From NCBI GenBank assembly GCA_958296075.1, contig CATQHW010000001.1:783859-847858 (forward strand): a stretch of DNA of 64,000 bases, given 5' to 3'. The position numbers were made by a program, and so were the translations under genes. Within the stretch, counting starts at the first letter, position 1; each line of letters opens with the position of its first letter. Shown one piece after another: positions 6,898 through 58,332 of this stretch. This DNA comes from an uncultured Spirochaetia bacterium. Lineage in GTDB: Bacteria > Spirochaetota > Spirochaetia > SZUA-6 > Bin103. Under the pieces are notes generated by a model. That model saw only the letters and a program-made list of their open reading frames with translations, had not been told where the DNA came from and ran no database searches.

Positions 6898-7487
6898 CCG
6901 ACCAGCAGGCGCGCTCCACCCTCGCCGCCTACGGCAACGACCGCATCCGGGTGCCACGCATGAACGCGCTGGCCGAGCGCAGCACCGTCTTTCACCGCGC
7001 CTACTGCGCGCAACCGGTGTGCGGTCCGGCGCGCGCCGCGCTCTTCAGCGGCACCTACCCGCACCGCAACGGCCAGATCACGCTGGACCGGCATCCCATG
7101 CACGACCACGTCCCGTGCCTGACCGACCTGCTCGACGACCGCTGGGCCTGCGGGTTCTTCGGCCGCAGCGGCCACCATCGCTACGCGGGCGGACCGGCGC
7201 CGCGCGCCGGCGGCATCGAGACGAGCTCGACTTCGACGACGGCGCGCCGGCGGCGGTGCTGCGCGCGCACGGCCTGACGCCGCAGGACGGCGTCCGCTTC
7301 GGCAAGCAGGATCGCCCCTTCATCCCCGAGCATCTGGGCGGCCCGGCCAACATCGCCACCAAGGCGTGCGACTTCATTCGCCGGCACCGCCGCCGGCCGT
7401 TCGCCCTCACGCTCTGCTTCTACGAGCCGCACGACCCGCTGTCGGGACCGCTGAACGACTTGCACCCCTTCGAACAGGTGACCCTGC
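6898..7487 (+). pseudogene. Partial duplicate of the sulfatase gene (copy of 10352..10939), part 1
   Basis: Near-identical to 10352..10939 with a few transitions and a 2-bp GA insertion near 7218. Confidence 0.95.
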
Positions 7488-7515
7488 GGGCGATGCGAGT
7501 CCGTATCTCCACAGT

Positions 7516-7555
7516 GTAAGCCATGGCTGACATTCATATGTTAGCTATGGCTTAC
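7516..7555. promoter_or_regulatory. Imperfect inverted repeat, probable phage operator between divergent cro stub and cI
   Basis: GTAAGCCATGGCTGACAT-TCAT-ATGTTAGCTATGGCTTAC: 18-bp arms, 2 mismatches, AT-rich. Confidence 0.65.
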
Positions 7556-7588
7556 TTGTCAAGCACGTGTTGTTGATATTCTGCGCGA

Positions 7589-8074
7589 ATGGTTGGAGAA
7601 CGCATGGCTCGGGCGCGGAGAGGCGCCCGGCTGAAGCAGGTCGAACTCGCAGCGGCGATGGGAGAGGGCGTGGGTCGATCGATGATCTCGATGATCGAGA
7701 CCGGACGCCTCCTACCGTCCTTCTCACGCGCGATCGAGGCCGCCACGGCGCTCGACGTGTCCCTCGACTACTTGGCCGGCCTCACCGACGACCCCGAGCC
7801 GGCATCGCTGCGCAGGCGTCAAATCGGTCGCCAGCGACCGATTTGACGCCTGCCGGACGGCTGCTCGATCCTGCTCGACCGCCTGCGCCGCTCACCGCGC
7901 GCTGGCCGCATCTACGTGGTGCGCACCAGCGACGAGGGCGTCATCGTCAAGCGCTCACACCGCGCCGGCGGCCGCTGGACCCTGCGCAGCGACCACCCGG
8001 CATGGCCGCCGAGGCCCTGGCCGCCCGGCGCCGAGATCATCGGCGAGGTACGCTGGATGGCCCGCACACTCTGA
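7589..8074 (+). pseudogene. cI/LexA-like repressor (XRE HTH plus S24 peptidase) with internal deletion
   Basis: HTH ORF 7589..7846; after the stop, LPDGCSILLD..IVKR..LRSDHP..IIGEVRW to TGA 8074; the catalytic-Ser segment is missing. Confidence 0.85.
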
Positions 8075-8087
8075 ACGGAGGGATGAG

Positions 8088-8479
8088 ATGGCGTTGGTGA
8101 AGTGCCCCGATTGTCGCGCTGAGGTGAGCGACACTGCCGCGAGTTGCATCAGATGCGGACGCGCGTCCCGTGAGCCGAACATGCTTGGTCGGCTCACGAA
8201 GGGATCTTCCTCCTCTTCAACGGCGCGATGGCAGCGTGGGCTGTGGTGGAGATGGGGTTTGGCGGGGTGATGATGCCCTGGGCGGCCGGATCGGTCATCC
8301 TCGGCATGCTCGCGCTGGTGACCCAAGGGCCACAGCGCGAGCTGGGCGGAGCGAGGAAGAAGGCAAACGCCGAAGAGGACGTGATGTCGCGCGTGATAGC
8401 GCGACGGCATGCCCGTGGCGAGGGCTTGATCGGCAAACCTGAGAGGCGCGAGAGAGAACCGAAGGTCGATGAACCCTGA
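8088..8479 (+). pseudogene. Zinc-ribbon membrane protein, apparently frameshifted
   Basis: MALVKCPDC..CIRCG zinc ribbon (8088..8270); hydrophobic segments continue in another frame (8228..8479). Confidence 0.6.
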
Positions 8480-8543
8480 TCAGAGGCCGACGTTCACCGC
8501 GATGCCCAAGGCCATATCTCTTCCTTGTCCAAGACAGACCCTC

Positions 8544-8780
8544 TTATTCACCGTCAGCGGCTTCCACTACCTTGGGGTCGACCGGCCGGTTGAAGTCCGG
8601 CATCCCATCTGAGCCCATGCGGTAGTACTCGCCGCTGGCCCAGTACACCACCTTGGTGCCGTCCGTGAGTTTGGTGATGATCAGGTCGTACGTCGCGCCC
8701 GACGGATCCTTCCGCAGTTCGCTGAGGGGCCGAAGCTGCCGCCCGTCGTAATCGCTGCCTACTCGGTCCTCGTCAGCCAT
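8544..8780 (-). CDS. Small acidic hypothetical protein, possible immunity protein
   Basis: Overlaps the 3' end of the MuF-like gene. Confidence 0.55.
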   Translation of the reverse strand: MADEDRVGSDYDGRQLRPLSELRKDPSGATYDLIITKLTDGTKVVYWASGEYYRMGSDGMPDFNRPVDPKVVEAADGE

Positions 8781-9543
8781 CCCTGCGCCTCGAACAGATC
8801 GTCCATCGCCTCGGCGATGGGGGCGAACTCGTCATAGCCCCAGTGCCTGAGCCGTTCATCCAGGTGATCAGAGTGCAGGTAGTGGCGGAGCTGCGCAAGC
8901 ATCTGATGATCGCGACTGCGCCACGCGACCCACTGCGAGTATGCGCGGGCGAACACCTCGTGCGGTGACTGGAGGTGGCTCCGCTTTGCGCCGCTGAGGT
9001 CGTGCGCGATGGCCGTGAACGTGGGCGAGTCCCAGGTGGCGCGCAGCAGCCGCCGCATCTCCTCCGTCTCCTGGAGATTGGACTGCATGCCGCGTCCGGG
9101 GAGTCCGCTGATGTCGATGATGTGGCCGACCTCGTGCGCGACAGTCAGTTCGGGGTGCCGGGCATTGGCCGCCACGCCCATCTCGGTCGGCCTGCCATCC
9201 GGTGCGCGGTCGAGCCGTCCGTGCGTGCGCGCGTTCGCGCGATCGCGGACCACATCTATCGACGGCATGGCGCCGGCGCCGTGGAGCCGGTCGATGGCGT
9301 CGAGGCCGTCGCGGACGCGGCGACCGAGGTCGCCGCGAATGCGCACGTGCAGCGCGTCCGTCACCCGCGCCGTGTCAGGAGCGGGGCTGACGGTGCGCGC
9401 CAACCGCTCGTCCTTGAGCGCAAACTGCTGCGCGAGCTGCTCAGCGCGCCCGACGCCGGGGTTGCGTTCAAAGCCGGGGTCGATGCCCGCCACGCCGCGG
9501 TAGGTCCGCCTGGTGTGCTCGTTGCGATAGGTCATCTCGCGCA
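8759..9543 (-). pseudogene. 5'-truncated phage MuF-like head morphogenesis protein with C-terminal zincin metallopeptidase domain
   Basis: GIDPGFERNPG resembles the end of MuF domains; HEVGH and downstream EVFARAYSQW; 5' end cut at the insertion junction. Confidence 0.7.
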
Positions 9544-9624
9544 GCCGGACAACTGGACGCATCCTCCGGCCCCCGATCAGCCGCGCAAGGCGCTGCTGGA
9601 GCACCGGTGCGTGCTGCATCGCGG
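9544..9624 (+). repeat. Sulfatase duplicate, part 2 (copy of 10938..11018)
   Basis: 81 bp with one substitution. Confidence 0.95.
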
Positions 9625-9860
9625 ACGGTGGCGTGGAGGTGGTCGAGGTAGTCGGCTACGTCGGCGGCGGTAGTCGGCAGCACGGCGCGCCCGTGCTGGA
9701 TCGCCCAAGCGTTCTAGGAGCGGTACTGCCGGCGAGTGTTGGGCGCCAGCGTTTCGAGCGCGGCGACTGCGCGGCGCTGCTGGTCGGCCGTGGTGGCGAG
9801 GTCGCCCGTCGTCCCGGCCGGAGCCGGAGCGGTGGTCGTGGTGGCGAGCGCGGCCGTCAT
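9625..9860 (-). pseudogene. N-terminal remnant of a Cre-like tyrosine recombinase
   Basis: LAPNTRRQYRS*NAWAIQHGRAVLPTTAADVADYLDHL; in-frame stop; no catalytic domain. Confidence 0.65.
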
Positions 9861-10069
9861 GCTGCGCCCCGGTCGGCATCGCGCCGGTCGGCGAGCAAGA
9901 CCGATTGCAGGGTGTCGATCATGCCTTCGACGCGGGCGATGCGCTGTTCGACGCCCGCGAACCGGTCGGCGAGCCTGTCCATGCTGGCGCGAACGCCGGC
10001 GATCTGGACGGTGACAAGCCCGCCCAAGCTGACGGCGGCGGCGATGATGGCGATGAGCTCGGCTGACAT
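9857..10069 (-). CDS. Small TM plus coiled-coil hypothetical protein
   Basis: AGGAGG RBS; N-terminal TM then heptad pattern; stop overlaps the recombinase start. Confidence 0.7.
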   Translation of the reverse strand: MSAELIAIIAAAVSLGGLVTVQIAGVRASMDRLADRFAGVEQRIARVEGMIDTLQSVLLADRRDADRGAA

Positions 10070-10175
10070 GGCGTCCTCCTGAGCGGCCGGAGTGGTCTGG
10101 TCGGTGCCGGCCGCTTGCATCATAGCTACGTATAATATCGTATATCGGACAGCACCACGTTCTCGCGCAACATCA

Positions 10176-10218
10176 GTCGATGCTACCGTTGGCGAGCAAG
10201 TATTGCAGCCAGCGCGAA
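10176..10218. repeat. About 43-bp copy of 6488..6529 (ABC exporter fragment)
   Basis: GTCGATGCTACCGTTGGCGAGCAA..ATTGCAGCCAGCGCGAA present at both sites. Confidence 0.9.
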
Positions 10219-10317
10219 CGGCATTCAGTTGTAGTACGTCCGAGCGCTCACTTCAAGTCTGGCGTCCCCGGCCGGCCACCCTCGACGGATACCGCTTTCC
10301 CAACCGAAGATCGGGCT

Positions 10318-11745
10318 ATGACCTTGACGCCGAATTTGCTGCTGGTCGTCACCGACCAGCAGGCGCGCTCCACCCTCGCCGCCTACGGCAACGACCGCAT
10401 CCGGGTGCCGCGCATGAACGCGCTGGCCGAGCGCAGCACCGTCTTTCACCGCGCCTACTGCGCGCAACCGGTGTGCGGTCCGGCGCGCGCCGCGCTCTTC
10501 AGCGGCACCTACCCGCACCGCAACGGCCAGATCACGCTGGACCGGCATCCCATGCACGACCACGTCCCGTGCCTGACCGACCTGCTCGACGACCGCTGGG
10601 CCTGCGGGTTCTTCGGCCGCAGCGGCCACCATCGCTACGCGGGCGGACCGGCGCCGCGCGCCGGCGGCATCGACGAGCTCGACTTCGACGACGGCGCGCC
10701 GGCGGCGGTGCTGCGCGCGCACGGCCTGACGCCGCAGGACGGCGTCCGCTTCGGCAAGCGGGACCGCCCCTTCATCCCCGAGCATCTGGGCGGCCCGGCC
10801 AACATCGCCACCAAGGCGTGCGACTTCATTCGCCGGCACCGCCACCGGCCGTTCGCCCTCACGCTCTGCTTCTACGAGCCGCACGACCCGCTGTCGGGAC
10901 CGTTGAACGACTTGCACCCCTTCGAACAGGTGACCCTGCCGGACAACTGGGCGCATCCTCCGGCCCCCGATCAGCCGCGCAAGGCGCTGCTGGAGCACCG
11001 GTGCGTGCTGCATCGCGGCAAGGACGGCATCGCGCTGCGATCCGAGCAGGCGTGGCGGCTGCTGATCCAGCGCTACTGGGGGCTCTGCGCGCAGGTCGAC
11101 CGCGCCCTGGGACGGGTGTTCGATCAGCTCGACGCCGCCGGCGTGAACGGCGACACGCTGGTCATCTTCACCGCCGATCACGGCGAGCTGGCCGGCAGCC
11201 ACCGGCTGTTCGGCAAGAACCTGATGTTCGAGGAGTCGATCGGCGTGCCGCTGCTGATCAGCCGGCCCGGGCAGCGCGGCGCGCGGCGCGTGCGCACGCC
11301 GGTGAACCACGTGGATATCGTGCCGACCGTGCTGGAGGAGTTGGGCATCGCCGCGCCCGACCACCTGCAGGGTACCTCGCTCACGCCGTGGCTGGACGGC
11401 GCCGAGCCGCCGGCGCGGCCCGCGTTCGTCGAGTGGACGGGCATCAACTACCTGGTCCACGACGAGCTGCGACGCGACCCGCTGCCCGGCTACCTCGCCC
11501 AGGTCACCACGCGCGAAGCCGGGCTCGCCGATCTGGCGGACACCGTGCGCTGCGTCATCGCCCCGGATGGGTGGAAGTTCTGCCTGAGCGCCGCCGGCCA
11601 ACACGAGCTGTACGATCTGAACGCCGACCCGGGCGAGACCGTCAACCTCGCCTTCCGCCCGGAACACGCCGCGCGTCGCCGCATCCTGACCGCGCGCATC
11701 CGCGACTGGCAGCGCGCCACCGGTGACACTATGCTGCCGGCATGA
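10318..11745 (+). CDS. Cys-type sulfatase
   Basis: PNLLLVVTDQ, CGPARAALFSG (CxPxR), FTADHG, ELYDLNADPGE. Confidence 0.93.
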   Translation: MTLTPNLLLVVTDQQARSTLAAYGNDRIRVPRMNALAERSTVFHRAYCAQPVCGPARAALFSGTYPHRNGQITLDRHPMHDHVPCLTDLLDDRWACGFFGRSGHHRYAGGPAPRAGGIDELDFDDGAPAAVLRAHGLTPQDGVRFGKRDRPFIPEHLGGPANIATKACDFIRRHRHRPFALTLCFYEPHDPLSGPLNDLHPFEQVTLPDNWAHPPAPDQPRKALLEHRCVLHRGKDGIALRSEQAWRLLIQRYWGLCAQVDRALGRVFDQLDAAGVNGDTLVIFTADHGELAGSHRLFGKNLMFEESIGVPLLISRPGQRGARRVRTPVNHVDIVPTVLEELGIAAPDHLQGTSLTPWLDGAEPPARPAFVEWTGINYLVHDELRRDPLPGYLAQVTTREAGLADLADTVRCVIAPDGWKFCLSAAGQHELYDLNADPGETVNLAFRPEHAARRRILTARIRDWQRATGDTMLPA

Positions 11746-12734
11746 GCAGTCCTCCGGTTCGCTTCGCACAGTTCGGCGTCGGCCACTCGCACGCGGCCGG
11801 CAAGGCGCAAGTGATGGCCGACAGCCCCGACGTGGAGTTGATCGGCGTATGGGAGCCGGACGCCGAGCGGCGCGCGGCGGCCGGCGAGCAGGCCGCGTAC
11901 GCGGGCGTGCGCTGGCTGGACGATGCCGATGAGGCGCTGTCCGACCCGGCGGTGGCGGCGGTTGCGGTGGAAGGGGACGTATTCCAGAGCGTCGCGTGGG
12001 CGCAGCGCGCGGTCGGCGCCGGCAAGCACGTGTGGCTGGACAAGCCGGCCGGCATCGACATGGAAGCGTTCCGGCAGGTGGTAGAGACCGCCCGCGAGCG
12101 CAACCTGCTGGTCCAGCTCGGCTACATGTTCCGCTACAACCCGGGCGCGCGGTTCCTGCTCGACTGGGCGCTCTCCGGACGGTTGGGAGATATCCACGCC
12201 GTGCAGGGGCACATCTCGCTGACCGGAACCCAGTCCGCGCGGGCCAAGCTGGCGCCGCTTCCCGGCGGGCCGGCGTACGAGATCCTGTGCCACGTGATCG
12301 ATCTGGTGGTGGCGCTGCTCGGGCGGCCGCGGCACGTCACCGGCATCCTGCGCGATCACGCCACATCGCTCGCCGGCGCCGTGAACAACACGGCCGTGAT
12401 CCTGGAGTACCCGCGGGCGCTGGCGTTGCTGCAGTCGACCGCCTTCGAGGTCGACCACGGCGCCCGGCGGCTGGAGGTGCACGGCACGCGCGGCTCGGTT
12501 GCGCTCGGACCCATCGAGCCGCCGTCGGTGCGGCTGACCCTGGACGCGGACCGCGACGGGTTCCGCAAGGGGCCGCAGGAGGTCGAGGTGGCGGACGAGC
12601 CGCGCTACGTGGGCAGCCTGCGGGCGATCGTCGGGGTGATCCGCGGCGAGCGCGCTCCCGACCGCTCGCACGACCATGAGTTGGCGGTGCAGGAGACGAT
12701 CCTGCGCGCCGTGCACGTGCTGCCCGAGAAATAG
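11742..12734 (+). CDS. Gfo/Idh/MocA oxidoreductase
   Basis: GVGHSH Rossmann start, GKHVWLDKP, GYMFRY. Confidence 0.9.
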   Translation: MSSPPVRFAQFGVGHSHAAGKAQVMADSPDVELIGVWEPDAERRAAAGEQAAYAGVRWLDDADEALSDPAVAAVAVEGDVFQSVAWAQRAVGAGKHVWLDKPAGIDMEAFRQVVETARERNLLVQLGYMFRYNPGARFLLDWALSGRLGDIHAVQGHISLTGTQSARAKLAPLPGGPAYEILCHVIDLVVALLGRPRHVTGILRDHATSLAGAVNNTAVILEYPRALALLQSTAFEVDHGARRLEVHGTRGSVALGPIEPPSVRLTLDADRDGFRKGPQEVEVADEPRYVGSLRAIVGVIRGERAPDRSHDHELAVQETILRAVHVLPEK

Positions 12735-12769
12735 TTCGGGGAGCAGGCCGGCTGCGCCGGTGTGCGACG

Positions 12770-13636: not shown

Positions 13637-13642
13637 ACCGGC

Positions 13643-13839
13643 GGCGGCCACGTCCACGCACCCGGTCGTGAAGTCGAAATCGTCGACGGACGTGGCGGAG
13701 GGCGCGAATGAGGCCGGCGTCGTCACATGCGGTCTATCGTACCGTGTAGGTGCCCTGCGCGTTCGCCAGCGCTTGGGGGAATTCGGCTTCGTCGAAGATC
13801 AGCCGGAAGGTGCCCTTCACGGGGCCGTCACGGACCTGC
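13643..13839. repeat. About 197-bp imperfect direct repeat of 20079..20275 (Res 3' end plus phyH 5' end)
   Basis: Aligned by eye; scattered substitutions. Confidence 0.92.
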
Positions 13840-15431
13840 ATCCGGCCCACGTTGAAGGCCTGCTCAAGCGTTTTCAGCACCTTGCGCTTGTAGACGGTGT
13901 CCGGGTTGTCACGCAGGTGTTCGCCCTTGGTCTCGAACACCAGCAGGTGCGGCTTGCCGGCGCTCGCACCCGCCATGGCGATGAAATCGGGATAGATGCG
14001 CTCCCGCCGCCAGCCGCGCAGGTGGTACTCGCCCTGCTGGCGTACGGCCACCCGGTGCCACCAGCGCAGCGCCTTCTGTTCGTCCAGGTAGTACGCGAAG
14101 CGCCGCTCCAGCTCGCTGTCGAACTGGCGTTCGAATACCGGCTCGAACAGATTGAGCTGCACCGGTTGGCCGAGCCGCTGCAGGCTCCGGTCGGACTCCG
14201 CCACCGGCAGCTCGTAGCTCTCGCGCATCCGGTAGCGGGGTACGCCGGCGTCCAGATCGAAGCGGATCTCCGATTGCAACAGTTTGTCGTTGAACACCCG
14301 TTCCGCCATCCGTTCCACGCCGTCGATCACCGCTTCCCGCAGCGCATAGGCGAGATGGGACCGGCGGTCGTAGATGCCGGCTCCCTCCGCGCCCGTGTCC
14401 CGTAGTCGTTCCAGCAGGCGGCCGGCGATGCCGGCGGCGTGCCACGGGTTGGGCACCACATCGGCCAACCGGCGCACGAAGTAGGACAGTCGCACGCTCT
14501 TGTCGACCGGGAGGTCCCAGGATGCTCCCGGCGCGGCAACCGCCGCGCCCGCGCCTGCGCCGACGTCCACGGTCGCCGTCTCCCGCCGGGCGGCGACCGG
14601 CAGCGAGTCGGCCGGGTCCGGCGGTTCGATCCGCTCCCAGGCGATGGCCGGCAGGATGTCGCGATGGTAGTCGAGGTGGCGCCAGCCGGCGCCGTCCCGG
14701 TGCAGCACCTTGGGCAGGAAGATGTCGGTGCCGCGGAACCGGTCCCGTCGCCGCACCTCCACGAGTTGCAACTCGCCGCCGCTCGCCGTCACCTCGTCGC
14801 CGAGGCCGGTCAGCCCCTCCTGTTCCAGCCCCTGCTTGATCTGCTGCACTGCGGCGGCCACGTCCATGTTCAGGCAATGGACCGCGCACCGATCCAGCCG
14901 CTCCCGCCCGGTGCGGCGCGCGTGCGGCTGGCGCATGACCCGCCCCACCAACTGGGTGAGCGCGCGCTGCGCCCGCGTCGTGTCCAGCATCACCAGCAGG
15001 TAGGCGAACGAACAGTCCCATCCCTCCATCAGCGCCGCGCGGGTGATGATCCAGCGCACCGGCGAGTACTCGGAGAGCAGGTCCTCCTTCCCCAGCTCGT
15101 CGTTCTCGGCGGATTTCACCCGCACCGCGTCGCCGGGAACGCCGAGGTTGCGGGTCAGGTACTCGCGCACGTCTTCGGCGTGGATGCGTTCGCCGTCGCG
15201 CTGATCCTTGCCGGTGCGCTCCACCCGCACCACGGCGATCGGCCGGATGTAGCGCCCCTCGCTCATCTGCAGCGACTCCGCTTCGACGCGCAGCCGGTCC
15301 AGTTCCTCGGCCGCCTCGCCGAGCACGTGCTGCCATTCGGCGTTGGTGAACGACTCCACCCGCACCGGCAGCTTGATCATCTCCTCCTGCTTCAGATCGA
15401 CGCCGGAGATGTCGACCAGCAGGTTGCTGAT

Positions 15432-16273
15432 CTCCGACCTCCTCCAAGCCGCTCAGCGAAGGATCAAGGAACAGAACGCTCTGATCGAGAAGCTCCAGCA
15501 AGAGCTCGAAGAGTTTGGGGTTGGGCACAAAAAAGGAGCCATGCCAGAAGCATGGCCCCTCTCAGACGTGCTCGATCGACTATTGGAAGCCCACGAGACT
15601 TCCACCTACGCCAACCTGACGCAGTACCTACACCGTCATCGCTTCGGCTCCCACACAGGCGGACAGGGAACCGCTCCCAAGAAGAAGATGTCGGCCAACG
15701 AAGTCGGCCACTACCTCATGCGCCGCCGGAGCGGTCCTCGGAAGCACGTCAACCAAGGTTGAGGAAGTCCGGAATCATCTCGATGAGCTTCTCAGCTCCC
15801 TTCCCGGCAAGCCTCGGAAGCACATCGAACGAAAGCTTCTTTCCCCCCTTCTCCGAGAAGTTTTTCCGAACCACTGACACGATGCGGATTCCGTAACTGG
15901 GGAACTCGATCCCCTGGTCCGTAATCGCTGTTGACACGATCTCGTAACCGTCACTCGTCGCTTCGCTCAGGATTCTCGCATGATGGTCACTTGCCCGCAC
16001 CATCTTGGCCTTCTTCTTCTTCAGATACTCGTAGTCGATGAAAGTCTTCGTGCCTTCCTCAGAGATTGTGAACTGCTGATTCACAGTATCTATGATGATA
16101 GGCTTACCGTCTTCTCCGACCAAGTGATCGAAGCTGTCTATGACTCTGACATCTGACGACACTACCGTCTCGCTCATCGTATTCCCCTTCATTTGCAAGC
16201 ACCCCGCTTGCTCATCCAGAATTGACGTCACACCTCTCTGATGTGACCGCGCACCACGCGGAGATTCTACTAC
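15432..16273. mobile_element. 842-bp lower-GC foreign fragment inside the Res gene, flanked by duplicated AT
   Basis: Removing 15432..16275 gives in-frame SATPNRSISNLLVDISG. Confidence 0.85.
15749..16177 (-). CDS. Hypothetical protein within the insert
   Basis: 142 aa; purine-rich RBS GAAGGGG; codon usage unlike the host. Confidence 0.7.
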   Translation of the reverse strand: MSETVVSSDVRVIDSFDHLVGEDGKPIIIDTVNQQFTISEEGTKTFIDYEYLKKKKAKMVRASDHHARILSEATSDGYEIVSTAITDQGIEFPSYGIRIVSVVRKNFSEKGGKKLSFDVLPRLAGKGAEKLIEMIPDFLNLG

Positions 16274-17140
16274 ATGCTGCGGTTCGGGGTGGCCGACAAC
16301 TCGATCACCAGACTCGGGTCCAGGCGGTTGATCGAGCGCACGAACTCCTGCGCCGCGGCCGCCTTGCCGTACGCCTTGTGAGCTTCGTCCAGCACCACCA
16401 CCGGACGCAGCAGCTTGAACACGTTGAACAGACTGTGCTTGACCGGACCGCCCTCCGAGGTGCATTCCAGGTCCGGGTAGTCGTGCAGCAGACGGCCGTC
16501 GCCAAGCACGTCGTCGCTGTCGGGAAACAGCGTCGGGTAGCGCCCCGAGTCGCGGAACATGCGCAGGAACTCCTTGCCCTTCTGACGGTTGGCGGCCGGC
16601 AGCATGAGCAGCATCACGCACAGGTAGTGGGCGACGTCGGCGGCGGTAAACGGGTCGTCCTTCTCCAACATCTTGACGCGCCCGCCGCTGGCCCGCTCCA
16701 GCATCTGGCGGTACGGATGTTCGCGGTTATAGAGCGCGATCCTGGTCTGCTGATAGATGGCGCGGGTGGGGGTGATCCACAGGGTGAGGCCGGCGGGCCG
16801 GTTCAGCCGTTCCAGCGCCGCCGCGGCGAGCAGCGTCTTGCCGTCGCCGGTGGGCACCTTGAAGCAGGCGTGCGGGATGGGAAAGCCGGCATCCGCGGTG
16901 CGCTCGGCGTAGTTCCCGCTGCCGCCGGCGACGCCGCCGGCCTGCGCCAGCTTCCCCCACGCCGACTTGGGGTAGTTGCGCAGGTCTGCGGGAACGTCCA
17001 CCCCCGCCTGCCGCAGCGCTTCGGTCCCGGCGGCGGACTCCCGGCGCGCCTCGCCGAGAGCGGCCAACCAGCGGCTGAACGCTTCCAGCGCGCGCGTCTG
17101 ATATTCCTTCAGTTCCATCTTCTTGCGCCGCGTTTCCCGG

Positions 17141-17943: not shown

Positions 17944-18017
17944 CACCACCTGATCCGAACGAGTTCGAGTTTACGCATCCCGGCTTCGCATGACTCCGGA
18001 GAGAACGCACGCGCGAT

Positions 18018-48155: not shown

Positions 48156-48167
48156 TGCATGCCTTTC

Positions 48168-50761: not shown

Positions 50762-50990
50762 GTGAACAAACCCCGACGGGTAACAGGTCGTGCCACGATG
50801 GCGCAATAAGCCATACCATACTTCCCATGCGACGTGTACAGCGTACAGCAGCCAGTCCCACCGCTGCTCCACCCGCGGGGCCGGCGCTCCACGCCATGTC
50901 GCGGGTTCGCTTGCGGTAATGCATATTCTCACGCATTTACGCAATTTCGTCGCATCGATCGTTGAATTAACACTAATTCTCCCGTTCTCG

Positions 50991-52060: not shown

Positions 52061-52062
52061 AC

Positions 52063-53742
52063 TTACAGCTCCGCTGTCTTTTCGACGTCACATAGTAGGA
52101 TCTCACCCGACAGCAGCTTGCGGAGGAGTAGATCGTGGACTTCTGACAGCAGCACGCATTCCCTTGTGTTCGCGACGATTTGATCGTAGAGCGGGCGAAC
52201 AGTCTCCTCATAGGCGGCAATTACCGCTCGCGACGGGACGACGACGGGAATTGTCCGGTACACGGCCTTGCTGATTTCGGCGAATGTGGAGCCACCCGCT
52301 ATGCTTCTAATGTAATCAAGGTTTTCGTAACACCAGAACAGGACGTATAGATCAGGTAGGCGGCCATTGCAGATCATGGCGATGAAGCCCTGGTTTATGG
52401 CGGCTGGCACTTCCGTGATCGCTAGATATCCGATAGGAGCACGCGACGACAAGAGAACCGTACCAATCGGAAGGACTCCCGAGCCGATCTTTTTCACTCC
52501 GGCATCGGTGATCTTCCTATTCGTCTGCACTAACACCGGTGAATGGAGCGCTGATAGATCTTTTGGCGTAGCCCAGTGATGCTTGCCGTTGTTCCAGTAC
52601 GCGGATTCCTTCGTACTGGGAGTACCGCCTCCCACAGTGTTCACTTCCTTGCCGATCTCGGATACCTCCCACCCTACCGGCCTGGCAACTAAATTCGAGT
52701 CGAGAAATCGGTCAGGGAACCGTTCGGTGAAATCTTCCGGCAGGCCAGTGTCGCGGCCTTCCATCTTGGCGCGCACGGGATCGAAGTCGACAAACCAGGA
52801 TTTGAACAACGCCCTCGCCATTTCCTCCAGAGTTTCGTTCATGCGGTGGTTCACCTCGATCTTGTCGTCGATCTTCTCAAGAACGTGGACGATGGCGCGT
52901 TGTTCTTCGAGAGGCGGAAGTGGGATGGAAATCGATCGAAGAAATGAGACCGGCTGCGCGATCGATGGTACGCCGACTTGAGACGTGTTCGCTAGTAACC
53001 GGTGCCGGCCTTCGTGCGTCTTGAAGTAGTACGCTATGAACTGCGGAATCACCTGTCGTCGATCACAGCGCAGATAGAACTGGCTTTGAGAGACGACGTA
53101 ACGGTCGTAGGTCGAATCGTCGGGAACATAGGCGACTTGGCCAATGGTTCCCCGGTGAGAGAATACTATGTCTCCTCGTTGTACGTTCGCGTTCTTCAGG
53201 CGCGCTGCATGTTCCTCCGTGATGAATTTGAATCCTGGGCTATCATCGACTCGTACTCCATGGAGATGCTGACCGCTGATGATCGGTATACCCTCCGGTA
53301 CGAACGTGTTCACTCGAATGGATGACCCGAACGGACCCATCGCTATCTTCTCGGCGATTTCCTCGATCCGCTTCTCCGGCCATACCACCTGTCGAGCGCG
53401 GTCCTTTTCTACGAACACCACGTGGTTCCGTCCGATCTGACGGTGGAATCCTTCCGGCAAGGACGCCCAGTCGCGCGCTTCCACCAGGAAGGGAACGGTG
53501 GACTCACCCACTGCCTCCATGAAGTCAGCAAGCCGCGAGTCGTCGATCCTGGCGAGACCGGGGCCGCGCAGCACGAGGTCGAGGTCGCTGCCGTCGTGGC
53601 TCTGGCCGTTCACGCGGCTGCCGTAGGCCCAGACTTCCACGTCGGACAGGTGCTTTCGCAGTAGCGCTTCGATGGTGGCGCGATGGCGGGCCGACAGGCG
53701 CAGCTTGCCGGCCGGCTGCCCCGCGGCCGGCAAGTCACGCAT
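52063..53742 (-). CDS. hsdS: Type I R-M specificity subunit with N-terminal MNT nucleotidyltransferase domain
   Basis: N-terminal YGSRVNGQSHDGSDLDLV; two TRDs, LPPLEEQRAI, ALFKSWFVDF, LLRKLLSGEI. Confidence 0.92.
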   Translation of the reverse strand: MRDLPAAGQPAGKLRLSARHRATIEALLRKHLSDVEVWAYGSRVNGQSHDGSDLDLVLRGPGLARIDDSRLADFMEAVGESTVPFLVEARDWASLPEGFHRQIGRNHVVFVEKDRARQVVWPEKRIEEIAEKIAMGPFGSSIRVNTFVPEGIPIISGQHLHGVRVDDSPGFKFITEEHAARLKNANVQRGDIVFSHRGTIGQVAYVPDDSTYDRYVVSQSQFYLRCDRRQVIPQFIAYYFKTHEGRHRLLANTSQVGVPSIAQPVSFLRSISIPLPPLEEQRAIVHVLEKIDDKIEVNHRMNETLEEMARALFKSWFVDFDPVRAKMEGRDTGLPEDFTERFPDRFLDSNLVARPVGWEVSEIGKEVNTVGGGTPSTKESAYWNNGKHHWATPKDLSALHSPVLVQTNRKITDAGVKKIGSGVLPIGTVLLSSRAPIGYLAITEVPAAINQGFIAMICNGRLPDLYVLFWCYENLDYIRSIAGGSTFAEISKAVYRTIPVVVPSRAVIAAYEETVRPLYDQIVANTRECVLLSEVHDLLLRKLLSGEILLCDVEKTAEL

Positions 53743-54166
53743 CGTCCGCTCCGTCGATGACGGCAGCCAACGTCTTGGCGTCAGCGATGAAGCCCGGCAG
53801 CAGCTTCAAGGTCGCCTCGGCGAAGCCTTCGCCATAGTCGTGGGCGATGTCGTTGCGGTTGTCGCGGTACTCCAGCCAGCGCTCGCAGACGTCCGCCGGC
53901 AGCAGGCCGTGCTTGGCGGCGTGCCGGAACACGTCCTTGAAGGTGAGCCGGTCGGCCTGCCGGTTGCTGGCGAACCAGGGTCGCAGGCGCTTCTTCAGCA
54001 GCTTGCCGCCTTGCTCCAGCACCAACTCGAACGCCTTGACGCAGGCGGCGTGGTAGATGTCGTAGAGAATGTCCTCGGCATCGTGGCCGCCAAGCTTGTC
54101 GAGCGCCAGCTCCAGGGTCCTGATGCAGCGCTTCAGATAAGTGGTGTCTATCGCCAAGTGGTCCAT
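53735..54166 (-). CDS. HEPN protein (HI0074-like nucleotidyltransferase substrate-binding family)
   Basis: ACVKAFELVLE, FKDVFR, RNDIAHDY (Rx4HxY); 8-bp overlap with MNT-hsdS. Confidence 0.88.
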   Translation of the reverse strand: MDHLAIDTTYLKRCIRTLELALDKLGGHDAEDILYDIYHAACVKAFELVLEQGGKLLKKRLRPWFASNRQADRLTFKDVFRHAAKHGLLPADVCERWLEYRDNRNDIAHDYGEGFAEATLKLLPGFIADAKTLAAVIDGADDA

Positions 54167-54337
54167 GGGTCCGGGTTCCAAACGTGAGTCGGCCAACGGT
54201 CCCGGTGAGTCCGCACGACCGAGCGCTACACCATACCACGGCGGACGCCCCGATTCGCGTCCTGCGGCGGCGCTTGACGTCGTACCGACCTCTTTACGTA
54301 CCGTACCATGCACGAAAGTCCGATAGGAGGCGCCCGC

Positions 54338-54621
54338 ATGGCGAGTGAACGGATCACGAGCTACACCGAGGCCCGTCAGAATCTCAAATCGTTGATGGAC
54401 AGCGTGATCGAGGATCGCGTGCCGGTGATCATCACGCGGACTATACGGGCGACCCGGTGAGCATGCTGTCCAAGGCCGAGTACGACGCGACGATGGAGAC
54501 CTTTCACCTGCTGCGGTCACCGCGAAACGCGGAACGCCTGCGCGACGCGATTGCCGGCATCGAAGCGGGTAACGTCGTGCACGTCGACCTCGCCGCCGGG
54601 GAGATCGCAGAGCGGCCGTGA
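54338..54621 (+). pseudogene. yefM: Phd/YefM antitoxin, frameshifted
   Basis: SYTEARQNLKSLMD..PVIITR, then in another frame METFHLLRSPRNAERL; GTAC repeats in the upstream promoter region. Confidence 0.85.
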
Positions 54622-54634
54622 GCCGGGACCGCTC

Positions 54635-54718
54635 GTGGCCATCGCATTCTCCCGGCAGGCTCGGGCAGACTACCGTAACGGTCGGTGCATCGTCGTTCAG
54701 TGTCGCTACCACTATTGA
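54635..54718 (+). pseudogene. yoeB: Txe/YoeB toxin scar (both termini fused, core deleted)
   Basis: VAIAFSRQARADYRNGRCIVVQCRYHY*; CRYHY is the typical YoeB C-terminus. Confidence 0.8.
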
Positions 54719-54731
54719 AACCGAGGTACCA

Positions 54732-56341
54732 TGGAGTTTGTCCCGCTTTCGTGGACACATCAAGAGTGAAAACGAAAAGGAGGGACTACGATGCCGAGAA
54801 CGCATCAAGCGTATCCGCAGGAGCTTCGTCAGCGGCTGGTCGAACTGGTGCACGCCGGACGCACGCCGGAGGAACTGGCTCAGGAGTACGAGCCTTCGGC
54901 CGGGTCGATCCGCAACTGGGTCGCTCAAGGTGAACACGACACCGGACAGCGCAGCGACGGGCTCAACAGCGAGGAACGTCAGGAACTGCGCCGCCTGCGG
55001 CGCGAGAACAAGCAACTGCGCATTGAACGCGACATCCTAAAAAAGCAGCGGCTTGGTTCGCTCGGGAGAGCGACTCGATCCCGGCGCGGGATTCCAGTTC
55101 GTGAAGGCGAATCAGGCCGTCTGGCCGGTGCGCACCGTCTGCCGGGTGCTGGGTCTCTCCCCCAGCGGCTACTACGCATGGGTGGGTCGCGCACCGTCGG
55201 CGCGGGCACGCCGGGATCAGCAACTGCAGGAGCAGATCAAAGAGCTCTGGGACGCCAACCGGCAGGGGTATGGACGCCCGCGCATCCATGCCGAGTTGCA
55301 GGAGTCAGGCCAGCGAGTGAGCGCGAAGCGGGTCGGGCGCCTGATGCAGCGCGCCGGCATCGCCGGGGCCAGCCGCAGGCGGCAGGTGCAGACCACCACG
55401 CGCGTGGAGCGTGCCGCGCATGGCGCCGGACTTGGTGCAGCGGGACTTCACGGCCGCCCGGGCCGACCGCCTGTGGGTAGCCGACATTACCTACGTGCCG
55501 ACGTGGTCGGGGTTTCTGTATCTGGCGGTGGTGCTCGATGTCTGGAGCCGCCGGGTGGTGGGCTGGTCGATGGCCACGCACCTGCGCACGCAGTTGGTGC
55601 TGGGGGCGTTGGACATGGCGATCTGGCAGCGCCGCCCGCGTGGCGTGGTGCATCACAGCGACCAAGGCTCGCAGTACCCCTCGATCGCGTTCGGGGTGCG
55701 GTGCCAGGAGGCTGACGTGACCGTCGACCGGCACGGTGGGCGATGCCTGCGACAACGCGCTGTGCGAGAGCTTCTTCGCGACCCTGGAGTGCGAGTTGCT
55801 GGATCGTCACCGCTTTCGCGGCCACGCTGAGGCGCGCTTGGCGGTGTTCGAGTTCATCGAGGGCTTCTCCAACCGACGCAGGAGACATTCGGCGCTGGGC
55901 TACCGGTCGCCGGTCGCCTTCGAGGCCGCTCAGAGCGGCGTGAGGGCGAGCGCATGAGCACTGCCGTGGTGGGGATCCGGGCCGTGGCAACCGGTCGCAC
56001 TGAGCCGCAGAGCGGCCCGTTGCGGCCCGTGCGAATGGCGGCTCATGACGGCGTGGCGGCTGGCCGTAGGACTCCTGCGATCTGCCCGGCGGTCGGGTCC
56101 GGGCCGGTGCGGGTGCGCCGACGCGGCTCGGACGATCGGGCGACGAGCGCCCGCGAGCGCGGTTGCCGTTGCCGTACCGTCGCGTTCGGCAGCCGCATCC
56201 TGTTGGCACGACAGAGGTCCCCAGGCCGCCGCAAGCACGAGGAGGGAGCTTGACCTGCCGGCTACGCCGGGAGGAAGGTTCCCTCTCACCGGAGTATCAA
56301 AACCTCAGCGATTACCTGTCCGCCAAACCGGGACAATTCCA
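54732..56341 (+). mobile_element. IS3-family insertion sequence with degenerate orfB
   Basis: IRL TGGAGTTTGTCCCGCTTTCGTGGACA and IRR TGTCCGCCAAACCGGGACAATTCCA; orfA at 54791; A6G slippery site 55039..55045; WVADITY, HSDQGSQY, DNALCESFF with extra frameshifts; no target duplication seen. Confidence 0.92.
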
Positions 56342-56343
56342 TA

Positions 56344-56373
56344 TTGACAAGATAAAGAATTAGGATATAGATT
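56344..56373 (+). promoter_or_regulatory. Sigma70-type promoter for the binding-protein gene
   Basis: TTGACA-N18-TAGATT (or N16-TATAGA) in an AT-rich patch right after the IS. Confidence 0.6.
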
Positions 56374-57283
56374 GTAGACGACGTCGGGGGGAGTTCCGCG
56401 ACGCTTTCCGACGAGGAGGAAACATGAAGCGACTCATCATCGGATCGATCGCGAGCCTCATGGTCATCGGCGCGAGCGCGTATGCTCAGTATGTCGAAGG
56501 ACCGTGGTTTGCGGAGCAGGTTGCGCGCGGCGACCTGCCGCCGATCGAGGAACGGCTCCCGGTGGAGCCGCTGGTGCTGGTGCCCGGCGCCGGGTACGCG
56601 TTCTCGGCCGGGGGCATGCACACCGAAGGCTCGTACGACCGCGGTTCCGTCGACATCCCCAATATCCAGGGCCTGACCTCTACGCCATTCAGCGTGCACC
56701 GGTTCGAGACCACGCTGCTGCCGTGGGCCTGGAAGGGATGGGAAAGCTCGGCCGACAACATGATCTGGACGTTCTACATGCGGGAAGGCATGAAGTGGTC
56801 CGACGGCGACGATTACACCGCCGACGACATCCTGTTCTGGTTCGAGAACGTGCACGGCGAAACCGAAGCCGCGGCTCAGTACCGGGAAGCGGGGGCACGG
56901 ACCAAGAACGCCGTGGCGGACGCTACCGAACGTATCGAGAAGGTGGACGACTACACGCTGCGCTTCCATCTCAAGGCGCCGGATCCGCGTTTCGAGTGGC
57001 TGGTCGGTCAGCGCTCCGAGCGTGAGCTGCTGAACGTCGACTCCCACTACCTGCCGCAGTTCCATCCGGCGAGCGGCGACGCCGAGGCGTTGGCCGCCAA
57101 GGTTTCCGCGGGCGAGTTCGACACCTGGATGCAGCTCTTCGACGATCGGCGCGACCAGATGGGCAACACCAATCCCGACAAGCCGCACCTGATGCCGTGG
57201 GGGCCGTCCGACCCGCCGCCGGCCAACCCGGCGGTGTTCAGCGCCAACCCGTACAACTGGATGGTGGTGGATGACCGCGTCCT

Positions 57284-57725
57284 GCCGACGCCGTGCCCGC
57301 CGACGCCGACGCCGACGCCGTTCCCGCCGACGCCGACGCCGTTCCCGATGCCGACGCAGGAGATCAATGACAACTGGGATCGGATGATCCAGGAGGCGGG
57401 CACGGACACGCTGACCGAGTTGACGCACGAGTGGTACCGCCGCCAGGCCGATCAGGTCTGGACGCTCCCGCACCTGACGTTCCCGCCGACGCCGACGCCG
57501 ACGCCGTTCCCGACGCCGACGCCGTTCCCGACGCCGACGCCGTTCCCGACGCCGACGCCGTTCCCGATGCCGACGCCGTGCCCGATGCCGACGCAGGAGA
57601 TCAATGACAACTGGGATCGGATGATCCAGGAGGCGGGCACGGACACGCTGACCGAGTTGACGCACGAGTGGTACCGCCGCCAAGCCGATCAGGTCTGGAC
57701 GCTCCCGCACCTGACGTTCCCGCCG
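57284..57725 (+). repeat. Pro-Thr coding tandem repeats plus a 145-bp direct duplication (57344..57488 / 57581..57725)
   Basis: CCGACG hexamers, 18-bp unit CCGACGCCGACGCCGTTC x4; the 145-bp copies differ at one base. Confidence 0.95.
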
Positions 57726-57736
57726 GAGCTCGACGT

Positions 57737-58222
57737 ATGAGCGTCGAGCGCGACTGGCTGACCCGGCACCCGCTGCAGGGCTGGCGGGGCGTGGCCGTGC
57801 GCGACTCACGGGACGGCGTGACCGAGCTGCGGCACGTGGGGTGCGTCGGCGACGACGTGAGCGAGACGGGGGAGGCTATGCCGGTCCCGCGCGGTACCGA
57901 CATCCCACCGCGCTGCACCGTCTGCGAGGCGCCGATCGAGCAGGCCGCCCCCGTGACCGCCGGCGATCTCGTCCCCGTCCCCGACCCGCAGACGATCGGC
58001 CAGCGCCTAGTCGGGGCCATCCGGGCCGCGATCGAGGAGGCGCAGGCCGAGGTGCAGGTAGTCCTCGACGACACCGACGATGGCAACGACCGCCGTGCGG
58101 CGACGCTGGGTCACGACCTGCAGGCCGCCGGGCTCTGGGACATGCAGGGACGGCTCGCCGACCTGATATCGGGAGCGGATATCGCAGTAGAGGCCGGATG
58201 GGACCTGGAGGAGGAGGAGTGA
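57737..58222 (+). CDS. Hypothetical acidic protein (phage-like) within the insert
   Basis: 161 aa; HxxC and CxxC motifs; stop overlaps a following GTG. Confidence 0.6.
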   Translation: MSVERDWLTRHPLQGWRGVAVRDSRDGVTELRHVGCVGDDVSETGEAMPVPRGTDIPPRCTVCEAPIEQAAPVTAGDLVPVPDPQTIGQRLVGAIRAAIEEAQAEVQVVLDDTDDGNDRRAATLGHDLQAAGLWDMQGRLADLISGADIAVEAGWDLEEEE

Positions 58223-58230
58223 GCGACAGC
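57740..58230. mobile_element. 491-bp foreign fragment flanked by duplicated ATG, carrying ORF 57737..58222
   Basis: Removing 57740..58233 gives GAC GTA TGG CAG CCC AAC in the SBP frame. Confidence 0.78.
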
Positions 58231-58332
58231 ATGGCAGCCCAACTTCAAGGGCGTCCATCCGCGGACCGGCCAGCCGTTCGAGTTCGGAGGCATGTGGTAC
58301 GAGTAGCGCGTGATCTGACCGTTCGAAACGAC

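Follow-up and report, generated by a model that had tools for sequence, protein, structure and literature searches.

Three pieces of unrelated DNA, inserts A, B and C, sit as precise single-copy insertions within genes of the 64,000-nucleotide stretch of DNA analyzed here (the window; Table 1). At each of the three sites the number of host bases lost is 0, and the insert is flanked by a short repeat, GC at A, AT at B and ATG or TG at C. Each insert matches itself alone in the 4.05-Mb genome. A sequence-only reading of the window had proposed three true, precise insertions; this observation is confirmed by empty sites in relatives, in a sister strain and in paralogs, and the insert boundaries stand. 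The interpretation attached to it was partly supported. The inserts are most likely products of ordinary error-prone break repair rather than a new kind of mobile element, and the explanation that we prefer, with moderate confidence, is that DNA fragments were captured at chromosomal breaks by Ku/LigD end joining, independently of homology.

Table 1. Features at the three insertion sites (positions in the window; a dot marks features given without a strand).
Feature	Position	Strand	Evidence
Sulfatase fragment copy, 5' piece, host of A	6898..7487	+	98.7% identity to 10352-10942; Pfam Sulfatase, E 1.2e-09
Insert A, 2056 bp, internal prophage slice	7488..9543	.	gene order as in G004 loci L026 and L032
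cro-like gene stub, 15 codons, cut by left junction of A	7488..7533	-	comparison with L026
Operator-like inverted repeat between cro stub and repressor gene	7516..7555	.	18-nt arms, 89% complementary
cI-like repressor gene	7589..8074	+	HTH N-terminus, LexA/S24-like C-terminus; NCBIfam RstR-family repressor, E 2.2e-08
Small zinc-ribbon and membrane ORFs, frameshift-interrupted	8088..8479	+	translation, GC3 frame plot
78-aa ORF	8544..8780	-	tblastn to L032, L029, L030; comes after Mu-F-like gene in related prophages
Mu-F-like minor head protein, C-terminal ~260 codons, HEVGH motif	8759..9543	-	1777 homologs at E <= 0.001
Second GC (9544-9545) and sulfatase copy, 3' piece	9544..9624	+	98.8% identity to 10938-11018
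Intact sulfatase paralog, empty site for A (GC at 10938-10939)	10325..11745	+	Pfam Sulfatase, E 2.9e-38
res gene, 3' part, ending in AT at 15430-15431	13734..15431	-	88-91% identity to G001, G014, G004, G019
Insert B, 842 bp, 55% G+C	15432..16273	.	empty sites in relatives; sister-strain contig without B
Second AT (16274-16275) and res gene, 5' part	16274..17118	-	Pfam ResIII, DEAD
Family-5 solute-binding protein (SBP) gene, degraded copy, host of C	56376..57739	+	Pfam SBP_bac_5
Insert C, 491 bp, 73% G+C	57740..58230	+	paralog contiguous at site
Second ATG and last 89 bp of SBP gene	58231..58322	+	95.6% identity to G000:C1:634391-634301

Insert A interrupts a fragment copy of a sulfatase gene, in which positions 6898-7487 and 9546-9624 together match 10352-11018 of the intact sulfatase gene at 98.7% identity. 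The copy is ectopic and carries a frameshift relative to its paralog; sulfatase orthologs in relatives start 31-43 bp after the upstream PhyH gene, and the region 6250-10324 is a patchwork 4-kb block absent from relatives. At the insertion site the intact paralog reads ...CCCTGC followed directly by CGGACAAC, whereas in the A-bearing copy ...CCCTGC (the 5' piece ends in GC at 7486-7487) is followed by GGGCGATG...TCGCGCA, a second GC and only then CGGACAAC. Compared with the paralog, the copy has thus gained 2056 bp plus the second GC, with no host base missing.

The contents of A are collinear with the interior of prophage-like loci in the relative G004, where the order is terminase, portal, Mu-F, small gene, repressor and cro. 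At the left junction the cro stub, reading MSAMAYTVEIRTRIA up to the cut, compares with MSNVLASNIRARIAAIG... in L026 and is likewise positioned divergently from the repressor gene. The latter was matched by tblastn to 235-aa homologs in L026, L027, L028 and L032, and is broken mid-way by a 42-bp perfect palindrome (7812-7853) which stands in for about 75 codons. No family match was obtained for the zinc-ribbon and membrane ORFs. The right junction removes the N-terminal half of the Mu-F-like gene, the cut falling at about codon 222-263 in the homologs from G004; in all seven of the best-scoring long matches scanned, an N-terminal Phage_Mu_F domain lies ahead of the region matching the query. 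The two ends of A therefore fall within a cro-like gene and a Mu-F-like head gene, 2 kb apart on the collinear prophage map, which shows the fragment to be arbitrary. By its gene order, A is a 2.06-kb piece from the interior of a prophage of a type that resides in the genus, in agreement with the earlier proposal of a random foreign or phage piece cut through its own genes.

Insert B lies within a gene for a Type III restriction enzyme. In G001 and G014 the site is empty and reads ...GTTGCTGAT followed directly by GCTGCGG..., whereas in the window ...GCTGAT is followed by CTCCGACC...CTACTAC, a second AT and GCTGCGG, a gain of 842 bp and the second AT. All of the five relatives' loci examined (L010-L014) align straight through the joined flanks, and a contig of a co-occurring sister strain skips B. 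As this strain, with its empty allele, is about 1.3% divergent and stems from the same sample, the insertion is a recent one, and there is no ambiguity about its polarity. Removal of 844 bp in a script resulted in one open frame of 900 codons, bearing out the claim that excision restores the frame, and in G001 the ortholog, 900 aa long, is a Type III restriction enzyme (PADLOC REase_III, E 1.4e-186). No mod gene was found adjoining the res gene. B itself contains two convergent ORFs, 16192-15749 (minus strand, 147 aa) and 15433-15762 (plus strand), the left one being open at the junction, where B may, as proposed, cut through a gene of its own; neither had relatives in the collections searched, scans of Pfam, PHROGs, NCBIfam and PADLOC included.

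The host of insert C is a shredded copy of a solute-binding protein gene located inside a Type I restriction island. Over 910 bp this copy is 97.7% identical to G000:C1:635345-636246; beyond, 793 bp of the paralog have given way to tandem repeats of 18 bp and a 150-bp piece that is duplicated. The C site is uninterrupted in the intact paralog (G000:C1:634301-636272), and removal of C brought back the native C-terminus ...DVWQPNFKGVHPRTGQPFEFGGMWYE*, as had been predicted. The 5' part of the copy ends in ATG at 57737-57739. As the ATG of the window corresponds to GTG in the paralog, the certain junction repeat is TG and the three-base ATG first proposed is possible, while the GC at A and the AT at B hold as they were read. 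One frame of C runs uninterrupted from the junction as far as a stop at 58220-58222 (161 aa from the junction ATG) and displays a coding signature with GC1/2/3 of 0.80/0.49/0.89; the ORF had no relatives in the collections searched. A multi-copy IS-like repeat begins at 58329, after the end of the SBP gene.

Chimeric joins or other assembly artefacts in this mixed-community genome would be an extremely improbable source of the inserts. The runs containing the window are indeed mixed, comprising millions of contigs with the sister strain at about 10-fold higher depth, and the genome has a contamination score of 5.2%. However, in the read-based junction check, which covered A and B, both junctions of A were spanned by 2130-bp Logan contigs of runs X11 and X12 and both junctions of B by 902-bp contigs of runs X11 and X13, in each case with 0 differences. 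These contigs were built separately from three runs, although the runs probably come from the genome's own assembly sample and are therefore not independent of the assembly. In addition, three exact returns to the host base, each with a short repeat, would not be expected from an artefact.

Several known element types were considered. The Rfam search of the whole window at gathering scores yielded 0 matches, group I and group II introns included, and at E <= 1 RNA families gave 0 matches to B and C and two sub-threshold, unrelated ones to A; a group I or II intron or a structured RNA element was rejected, as no covariance model matched. Insertion sequences of the IS30, IS3 and IS630 families generate target duplications of 2-3 bp; they occur in multiple copies, and their ends are conserved and carry terminal inverted repeats. 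Like such elements and MITEs, the inserts interrupt genes and are bordered by short direct repeats, but inverted repeats at the ends, conserved termini and additional copies are all lacking. In none of A, B and C are the two termini linked by an inverted-repeat pair, and between any two insert ends only 2-8 of the 20 terminal bases match, so that the claimed lack of a shared terminal motif or inverted repeat was upheld. No copies of C occurred in 91 other genomes of the order, and none of B or C among the matches listed for 40 relatives. In the insert ORFs, scans with Pfam, PHROGs, NCBIfam and PADLOC revealed neither a transposase nor an integrase, again as proposed. An insertion sequence or MITE was rejected accordingly: terminal repeats, conserved ends, extra copies and a transposase were all missing. 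Integration by Cas1, as for spacers or casposons, duplicates about 14-36 bp of target at a repeat-like site and was rejected, since the duplications here are 2-3 bp. The genome has five full-length Cas1 matches and one split across two frames.

It is very unlikely that the inserts are decayed or non-autonomous remnants of site-specific elements with 2-bp cores, having lost their recombinase by internal deletion. Serine-integrase prophages, IS607 and IS110 insert inside genes at 2-bp cores and have no terminal inverted repeats, which fits the inserts, and A contains prophage genes as well as internal damage. However, A ends within its cro-like and Mu-F-like genes and not at attachment sites, no ends are common to any two inserts, no insert is repeated in the genome, and no further copies with identical termini at different sites turned up in the collections searched. 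Furthermore, domains of IS110 transposases, resolvases and large serine recombinases (DEDD_Tnp_IS110, Resolvase, Recombinase) gave 0 matches in the genome, which is scored 97.7% complete.

To judge the junction repeats, the insertion of random fragments at random sites of this genome was simulated. A repeat of at least 2 bp arose with a probability of 0.20 and one of at least 3 bp with a probability of 0.076; for all three repeats to reach at least 2 bp, p = 0.008. The repeats are thus modestly above chance, which is suggestive rather than strong, and they may be the reason why these cases were picked by the earlier reader. The frequent, unnamed process that had been postulated from three events is not supported: in an alignment of 1.28 Mb with the nearest relative, no unique insert other than B lay within an open frame that was long and conserved, and the self-comparison of the genome identified only A and C with such junction repeats. 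Such insertions are not frequent in this genome, and no new mechanism is revealed by them.

The preferred explanation assumes three separate events, in each of which linear, unrelated DNA would have been joined into a double-strand break and the host resealed without loss. A break with a 5' overhang of 2-3 nt would be filled in at both ends by the LigD polymerase, and ligation of a stray fragment between the filled ends would leave the overhang sequence on both sides; the junction repeats probably represent such fill-in. The fragments could be whatever DNA was at hand, a phage or prophage slice for A, lower-G+C DNA for B and high-G+C DNA for C. As had been suggested, the host genes were already damaged or redundant (a frameshifted sulfatase fragment, a res gene without adjacent mod and a shredded SBP copy); captured inserts would survive only in dead genes, the events persisting because their targets were already non-functional. 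The genome encodes Ku (141 bits) with an adjoining ATP ligase. It also encodes a LigD that combines a phosphoesterase domain (LigD_N), a ligase domain and a primase-polymerase domain (LigD_Prim-Pol, E 4.9e-83), as the check proposed for ku and ligD anticipated. The presence of these genes is permissive only, with no direct tie to the events. Scars of sloppy repair occur nearby, namely the palindrome in the repressor gene, the tandem expansions and replaced segment of the SBP copy and the patchwork block around A, and these are counted in favor of end joining. Against it counts that end joining often trims or adds bases, yet none were lost at any of the three sites. The idea that Type III enzymes made the cuts was not borne out, as no 4-6-base k-mer occurred at a common offset within 60 bp around the three targets. 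The hosts of A and C are ectopic fragments about 98% identical to resident genes; insertion possibly took place in a sister strain, and both may have been imported along with the host fragment.

That end joining, rather than another illegitimate route, joined the fragments is what we infer. A circularized fragment, e.g., from the loop-out of a microhomology deletion, might instead have been integrated by one illegitimate crossover at a match of 2-3 bp, perhaps mediated by a topoisomerase or by a recombinase acting off target. This would automatically leave the core on both sides without host loss, and exact host-base retention with a repeat at every site is more natural here than for two independent end-joinings. 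Potential sources of circles, microhomology-flanked deletions, are common between G000 and G001; for example, G001 has lost an SDR gene through a precise deletion of 820 bp at a TC repeat. However, two rare events would be needed per insertion, neither dyad symmetry nor a common motif was found around the three targets, and the absence of the recombinase domains noted above speaks against the recombinase acting on circles that had also been proposed; we consider the route unlikely. Slightly less probable still is a replicative template switch to a foreign template at a 2-3-nt match and back to the same host position, or the annealing of incoming single strands at microhomologies during transformation (double illegitimate recombination). 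Template switching would produce the same junction pattern, and the 42-bp palindrome and the SBP tandem expansions are classical switch or slippage scars, but an exact return to the same nucleotide in three of three cases is not expected. Transformation would be in line with a ComEC-family match in the genome, but this match is spread over two frames and the gene may be broken. In Acinetobacter, short-patch double illegitimate recombination has been described, but its products are called microindels (bioRxiv 10.1101/2023.11.22.568220).

The window resembles a graveyard of defence genes, with its Type III res gene and Type I hsd island, its candidate defence ATPases and its HepT/MNT pair. In a highly speculative extension, fragment capture at such loci would be more than an accident: restriction breaks in and around them, self-inflicted or phage-provoked, would routinely be patched with invader DNA. 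The islands would then be sinks that archive fragments, such as the phage slice (A) and the orphan genes (B and C), and would gain new content without any recombinase. The inserts provide worked examples of the form that gene gain without a recombinase can take in a genome, and as A can be mapped onto its donor type, the arbitrary nature of the fragment becomes apparent. For annotators, they are a warning not to infer a transposon from a short 'target duplication'.

The general pattern resembles eukaryotic filler DNA, in which organelle or retroelement pieces are found at repaired breaks with 0-4 bp of junction microhomology: short microhomology and tolerance only in dispensable sequence are common to both, as is, for A, the arbitrary fragment, although kingdom and enzymes differ. 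For natural transformation of Acinetobacter, de Vries and Wackernagel in 2002 and Huelter and Wackernagel in 2008 reportedly described homology-facilitated and double illegitimate recombination, in which, likewise with no transposase involved, foreign DNA is joined where only a few bases of microhomology exist. However, these events usually replace host sequence or need a one-sided homologous anchor, whereas here nothing was replaced, and the short-patch form is said to comprise microindels far shorter than the 0.5-2 kb of the present inserts. To our knowledge, few clean natural footprints of capture by end joining are known in bacteria. The closest parallel comes from Sinorhizobium meliloti, where a heterologous cassette was captured at an I-SceI break in a ku- and ligD-dependent manner, fill-in of 5' protruding ends was a typical outcome and a role of NHEJ in gene acquisition was proposed (Dupuy, Sauviac and Bruand, 2018; PMC6379672). 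Capture at engineered breaks is thus already known, and the claim that no standard feature class covers such insertions does not hold. As in S. meliloti, unrelated DNA entered a single site without homology, and Ku and LigD are encoded here too. Unlike that assay, with its engineered cut and electroporated cassette, the window displays natural footprints, likened to the published outcome in general rather than base by base at the junctions.

The three foreign insertions with short junction repeats that had been described from the sequence alone (inserts A, B and C) were confirmed, with junctions placed at base level and no host bases lost. For insert A, a BLAST comparison of 6400-10200 with the genome showed 6898-7490 and 9544-9624 to be duplicates, at 98.7-98.8% identity, of two adjoining segments of the intact sulfatase (10352-11018). 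The empty site in this paralog reads ...CCCTGC/CGGACAAC, and the A-bearing copy reads ...CCCTGC, followed by 2056 unrelated bases, GC and then CGGACAAC, i.e., GC stands on either side of the insert. The host of A is a 669-bp sulfatase fragment with a frameshift and not a gene. In the nearest relative (G001) and in other relatives, the PhyH gene is followed by a gap of 31-43 bp and then by the sulfatase, so that all 4075 bp from 6250 to 10324 are additional sequence in the genome under study (G000). This patchwork block combines ABC-ATPase pseudogene pieces with the A-bearing sulfatase fragment and 700 bp of other sequence. A 43-bp piece at 6488-6529 is repeated at 10176-10218, with unrelated sequence on its flanks. 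The stretch 9916-10239, where the summed contig depth in public sequencing runs amounts to 50-130 compared with 5-15 nearby and loose contig ends pile up at 10035 and 10073, is a short element common to many community members.

Insert B (55% G+C) interrupts the Type III res gene. The joined res flanks align straight through the site in the loci of all five relatives (G001, G004, G014, G018 and G019); the two halves abut with a 2-bp alignment overlap in G001, G014 and G018, and the alignments of G004 and G019 end 12 bp short of joining. The empty site reads ...GCTGAT/GCTGCGG in G001 and G014, and the window carries ...GCTGAT, 842 bp, AT and GCTGCGG. As had been claimed, excision restores the frame: removal of 844 bp by script produced a res open frame of 900 codons, and the G001 ortholog matches a PADLOC Type III restriction enzyme model over nearly the full length (E 1.4e-186). 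Between the res start and 17141-17253, the relatives are longer by 0.5-5.8 kb, namely by 0.5 kb in G001, 1.9 kb in G014 and 5-6 kb in G004 and G019. No mod gene came to notice upstream of res; the Type III system is thus orphaned in appearance, and we infer that it was already inert at the time of B. A 197-bp direct repeat (13643-13839 and 20079-20275, 91%) includes the res 3' end. Compared with G001 and G004, the res block (13643-17253) and the block 17513-20275 have exchanged places, a pattern that a tandem duplication with later deletions would leave.

Contigs of four public runs (X11-X14) were compared with window positions 7000-16700, a span that covers A and B. Both junctions of A were bridged by 2130-bp contigs (runs X11 and X12) covering 7458-9587, and both junctions of B by 902-bp contigs at a depth of about 2.8, in each case with no differences, which contradicts misassembly as an explanation for these two inserts. 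In addition, a contig skipping exactly 15430-16273 (844 bp, 2 bases ambiguous) occurred in all four runs at a depth of 7.5-34. With some 1.3% other differences from the window, this contig represents a sister strain from the same samples in which res is intact, and the insertion of B is therefore recent. The runs are mixed communities, in which the depth of the sister strain contig is about ten times that of the B-carrying strain (13760-16700).

Insert C resides in a gene copy whose intact paralog is the binding-protein gene at G000:C1:634317-636272; over its first 910 bp the copy is 97.7% identical to this paralog. Beyond this point, 18-bp tandem repeats and a duplicated 150-bp piece stand in place of 793 bp of the paralog, and at 57284-57594 tandem repeats of 18 bp and 21-27 bp encode (PTPTPF)n. 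The replaced stretch is followed by insert C, the last 89 bp of the gene and an IS-like multi-copy repeat. The paralog is uninterrupted at the site of C and reads GTG TGG as opposed to GT ATG ... ATG G in the window; as read from this alignment, the junction repeat is certainly TG and possibly ATG. Taking out C brings back the native C-terminus. The single frame of the insert (491 bp) shows a coding signature that is strong and native-like (GC3 0.89). This frame extends from the junction to a stop 8 nt short of the right junction, is also open upstream into the host, and could represent the 3' portion of a longer gene. The multi-copy repeat at 58329-58898 (about 570 bp) has several copies in G000 and also occurs in many relatives; other copies contain about 66 additional bases in mid-element, and one copy (C1:741974) misses 62 bp at a 2-bp repeat.

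Features of the window and of the three inserts (window positions)
Feature	Position	Strand	Remark
Insert A	7488-9543		in sulfatase fragment copy
cro-like gene stub, 15 codons	left end of A	minus	cut by junction
Operator-like inverted repeat	A, after cro-like stub		
cI-like repressor gene	A		middle replaced by 42-bp perfect palindrome
Small zinc-ribbon and membrane ORFs	A, after repressor		frameshifted
78-aa ORF	A, before HEVGH-motif fragment		
C-terminal 260 codons of protein with HEVGH motif	right end of A		
Insert B	15432-16273		in Type III res gene
Insert C	57740-58230		in solute-binding-protein gene copy
Sulfatase operon	in window		
Type III res gene	in window		
Candidate defence ATPase	in window		AAA_14/DUF4143, PADLOC PDC-S01
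Fused nucleotidyltransferase/HepT gene	in window		
Tract of 50-60% G+C, 6 kb	in window		further defence-type genes
Probable hsdR	43823-46957		named by position and size alone
hsdS	52063-53742		Type I hsd system, fused to nucleotidyltransferase domain
hsdM	58892-61594		Type I hsd system

The gene content of A allowed its origin to be mapped. Its HEVGH-motif ORF has 1777 homologs at E <= 0.001 in an exhaustive HMMER search; the best full-length homologs are mostly 400-530 aa long with only the C-terminal part matching the query, and in all seven homologs scanned a Phage_Mu_F domain is positioned N-terminal to the matching region. Two prophage-like loci of the related genome G004 have the same gene series and order as A, consisting of large ORFs, which we take from position and size alone to be terminase and portal, a Mu-F-like gene, a small ORF, an opposite-strand repressor and a divergent cro-like gene. 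From this collinearity it follows that A corresponds to one continuous piece from the interior of such a phage genome. The piece starts within cro (46 bp in) and stops around codon 222-263 of the Mu-F homolog; neither of its boundaries coincides with a phage end or an attachment site. An ATG located 9 nt inside the right end of A was dismissed as a coincidence, since the homologs run 140-230 residues further. The perfect palindrome within the cI-like gene (7812-7853; 20-nt arms, 2-nt centre) stands where about 75 codons of the 235-aa repressor homologs are missing and resembles a scar of fold-back or template-switch repair. Two short remnants of Mu-F-like C-termini and a homolog of the 78-aa ORF lie immediately upstream of the intact binding-protein paralog (G000:C1:636509-637459); the same phage gene types occur in A.

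The map of its ends contradicts, for A, the rival explanation that the inserts are decayed site-specific elements, and for all three inserts this explanation is opposed by the lack of shared ends, copies or enzymes. Each insert is single-copy in the genome; neither common termini nor terminal inverted repeats were found in A, B and C, the insert ORFs gave no match to transposase or integrase families, in line with the sequence-only reading, nor to defence families, and Rfam returned no intron and no other RNA family. That reading had also proposed a recombinase acting on circularised fragments, for which no candidate emerged among the types searched: IS110-type transposase, resolvase and large serine recombinase domains were undetected in the genome. 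Five full-length Cas1 matches and one split over two frames are present; two of these may be fusions, as they lie within open frames of 657 and 589 aa. Cas1-type integration produces target duplications far longer than 2-3 bp. A ComEC-family match (C2:1160409-1161115) is spread over two different frames. Restriction cuts by a Type III enzyme, likewise proposed, found no support: within 60 bp of the targets and in any orientation, no 4-, 5- or 6-mer was shared by all three at a matching offset (tolerance 2). The lack of a motif at a fixed distance argues against one sequence-directed nuclease, for instance a Type III enzyme, having acted on all three.

Donors were sought in several collections. 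The DNA of inserts A and B had no donor among plasmids. Of the two convergent ORFs of B, the minus-strand one (147 aa) is complete, and the other (109 aa) is open at the left junction; neither has relatives in any library or collection searched, and no homolog of the 161-aa ORF of C was found in the searches made with it. These three ORFs yielded nothing against phage records (tblastn) and only self hits or none in a word search of 5.8 billion proteins. No donor was found in viral contigs for the 147-aa ORF, the ORF of C or the Mu-F fragment of A, in genome contigs for the 147-aa ORF or the Mu-F fragment, or in metagenome contigs for the 147-aa ORF or the ORF of C, which was also absent from 91 other genomes of the order. 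In a protein atlas all scores were below 0.9; the nearest cluster for C comprised viral hypothetical proteins (0.86), and nothing usable was obtained for B.

The idea that such insertions are frequent was not upheld by genome-wide comparisons. A self-comparison gave 124 split HSP pairs, 13 of which, picked by eye as not belonging to tandem arrays, were inspected; these were A, C and 11 others, none of the latter a comparable event. The 11 comprised a 1095-bp IS, repeats or paralog families, paralog differences of 117-279 bp and one 2733-bp single-copy difference without a junction repeat. The comparison with G001 covered 1.6 Mb of that genome in 80 stretches, with 1,278,643 bp in best alignments, and yielded, after refinement, 39 clean indels of 100 bp or more. 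In four of them, an open frame of 100 codons or more extended to both sides of the empty site; these were B, a 138-bp length difference that keeps the frame, a site inside a repeated element, and a whole AAA_14/DUF4143 gene whose flanks match poorly (38/52 bases). Within these 1.28 Mb, B is the only unique insert in a long conserved frame. Other large differences between both genomes are whole-gene or multi-gene presence/absence without transposases, e.g., the AAA_14/DUF4143 gene, a DUF1156/methylase/DUF499 set, a sulfatase and a TPR protein. At G000:C2:1073486-1074305, one short-chain dehydrogenase (SDR) gene of 820 bp with TC on either side is lost in G001, which puts the upstream stop codon beside the downstream start codon. 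This difference and insert C, extending from ATG to 8 nt beyond its stop, had been considered as ORF-bounded cassettes; the idea was rejected for the SDR gene, which is present at the locus in nine other genomes of the genus (G002, G003, G005, G006 and G008-G012; 24 relatives searched), indicating a deletion in G001. Short-microhomology indels are the ordinary mode of change in the genus, and true foreign insertions are rare.

The genome (4.05 Mb, five contigs, about 69% G+C) has in the window (G000:C1:783859-847858) an unusually scrambled stretch. Its Type I hsd system (43823-61594) is broken up by insertions; the gap between hsdS and hsdM contains IS3-family fragments (54791-55830) and a shredded solute-binding-protein pseudogene, and low-G+C genes within the system encode AAA_21/AbiEii-like, DUF4365, DUF1828/1829 and DUF3644 proteins. 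Foreign insertions are visible here because three dead targets share one decaying region.

When random fragments were placed at random genome sites, a repeat of at least 2 bp arose in 20% and of at least 3 bp in 7.6% of the trials; three of three repeats of at least 2 bp correspond to p = 0.008, without correction for the tendency of repeats to catch a reader's attention. The explanation towards which we lean, with some reserve, is recombinase-free capture of foreign fragments, and its placement during break repair draws on the arbitrary fragment, the lack of homology and of host loss, and the 2-3 bp repeat. A chromosomal break with a 2-3 nt 5' overhang would be filled in at both ends prior to ligation, and a stray fragment ligated into the break would then be flanked by exactly the 2-3 bp repeats found. 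Two less likely but plausible rival accounts are the integration of a circular fragment by one crossover at a microhomology, and replicative template switching. Capture was a reasonable proposal of the sequence-only reading, but it represents a known process and not an unnamed class. The value of the three cases is that of clean natural examples, with a recent empty allele of B in the same community and A mappable onto a donor type. The machinery suggested by that reading is encoded in the genome, which has Ku, an adjoining ATP ligase, and LigD with phosphoesterase, ligase and primase-polymerase domains. In Sinorhizobium meliloti, according to a published study, a heterologous cassette was inserted into an I-SceI break by Ku/LigD-type machinery, and filled-in 5' protruding ends were among the typical products (PMC6379672).
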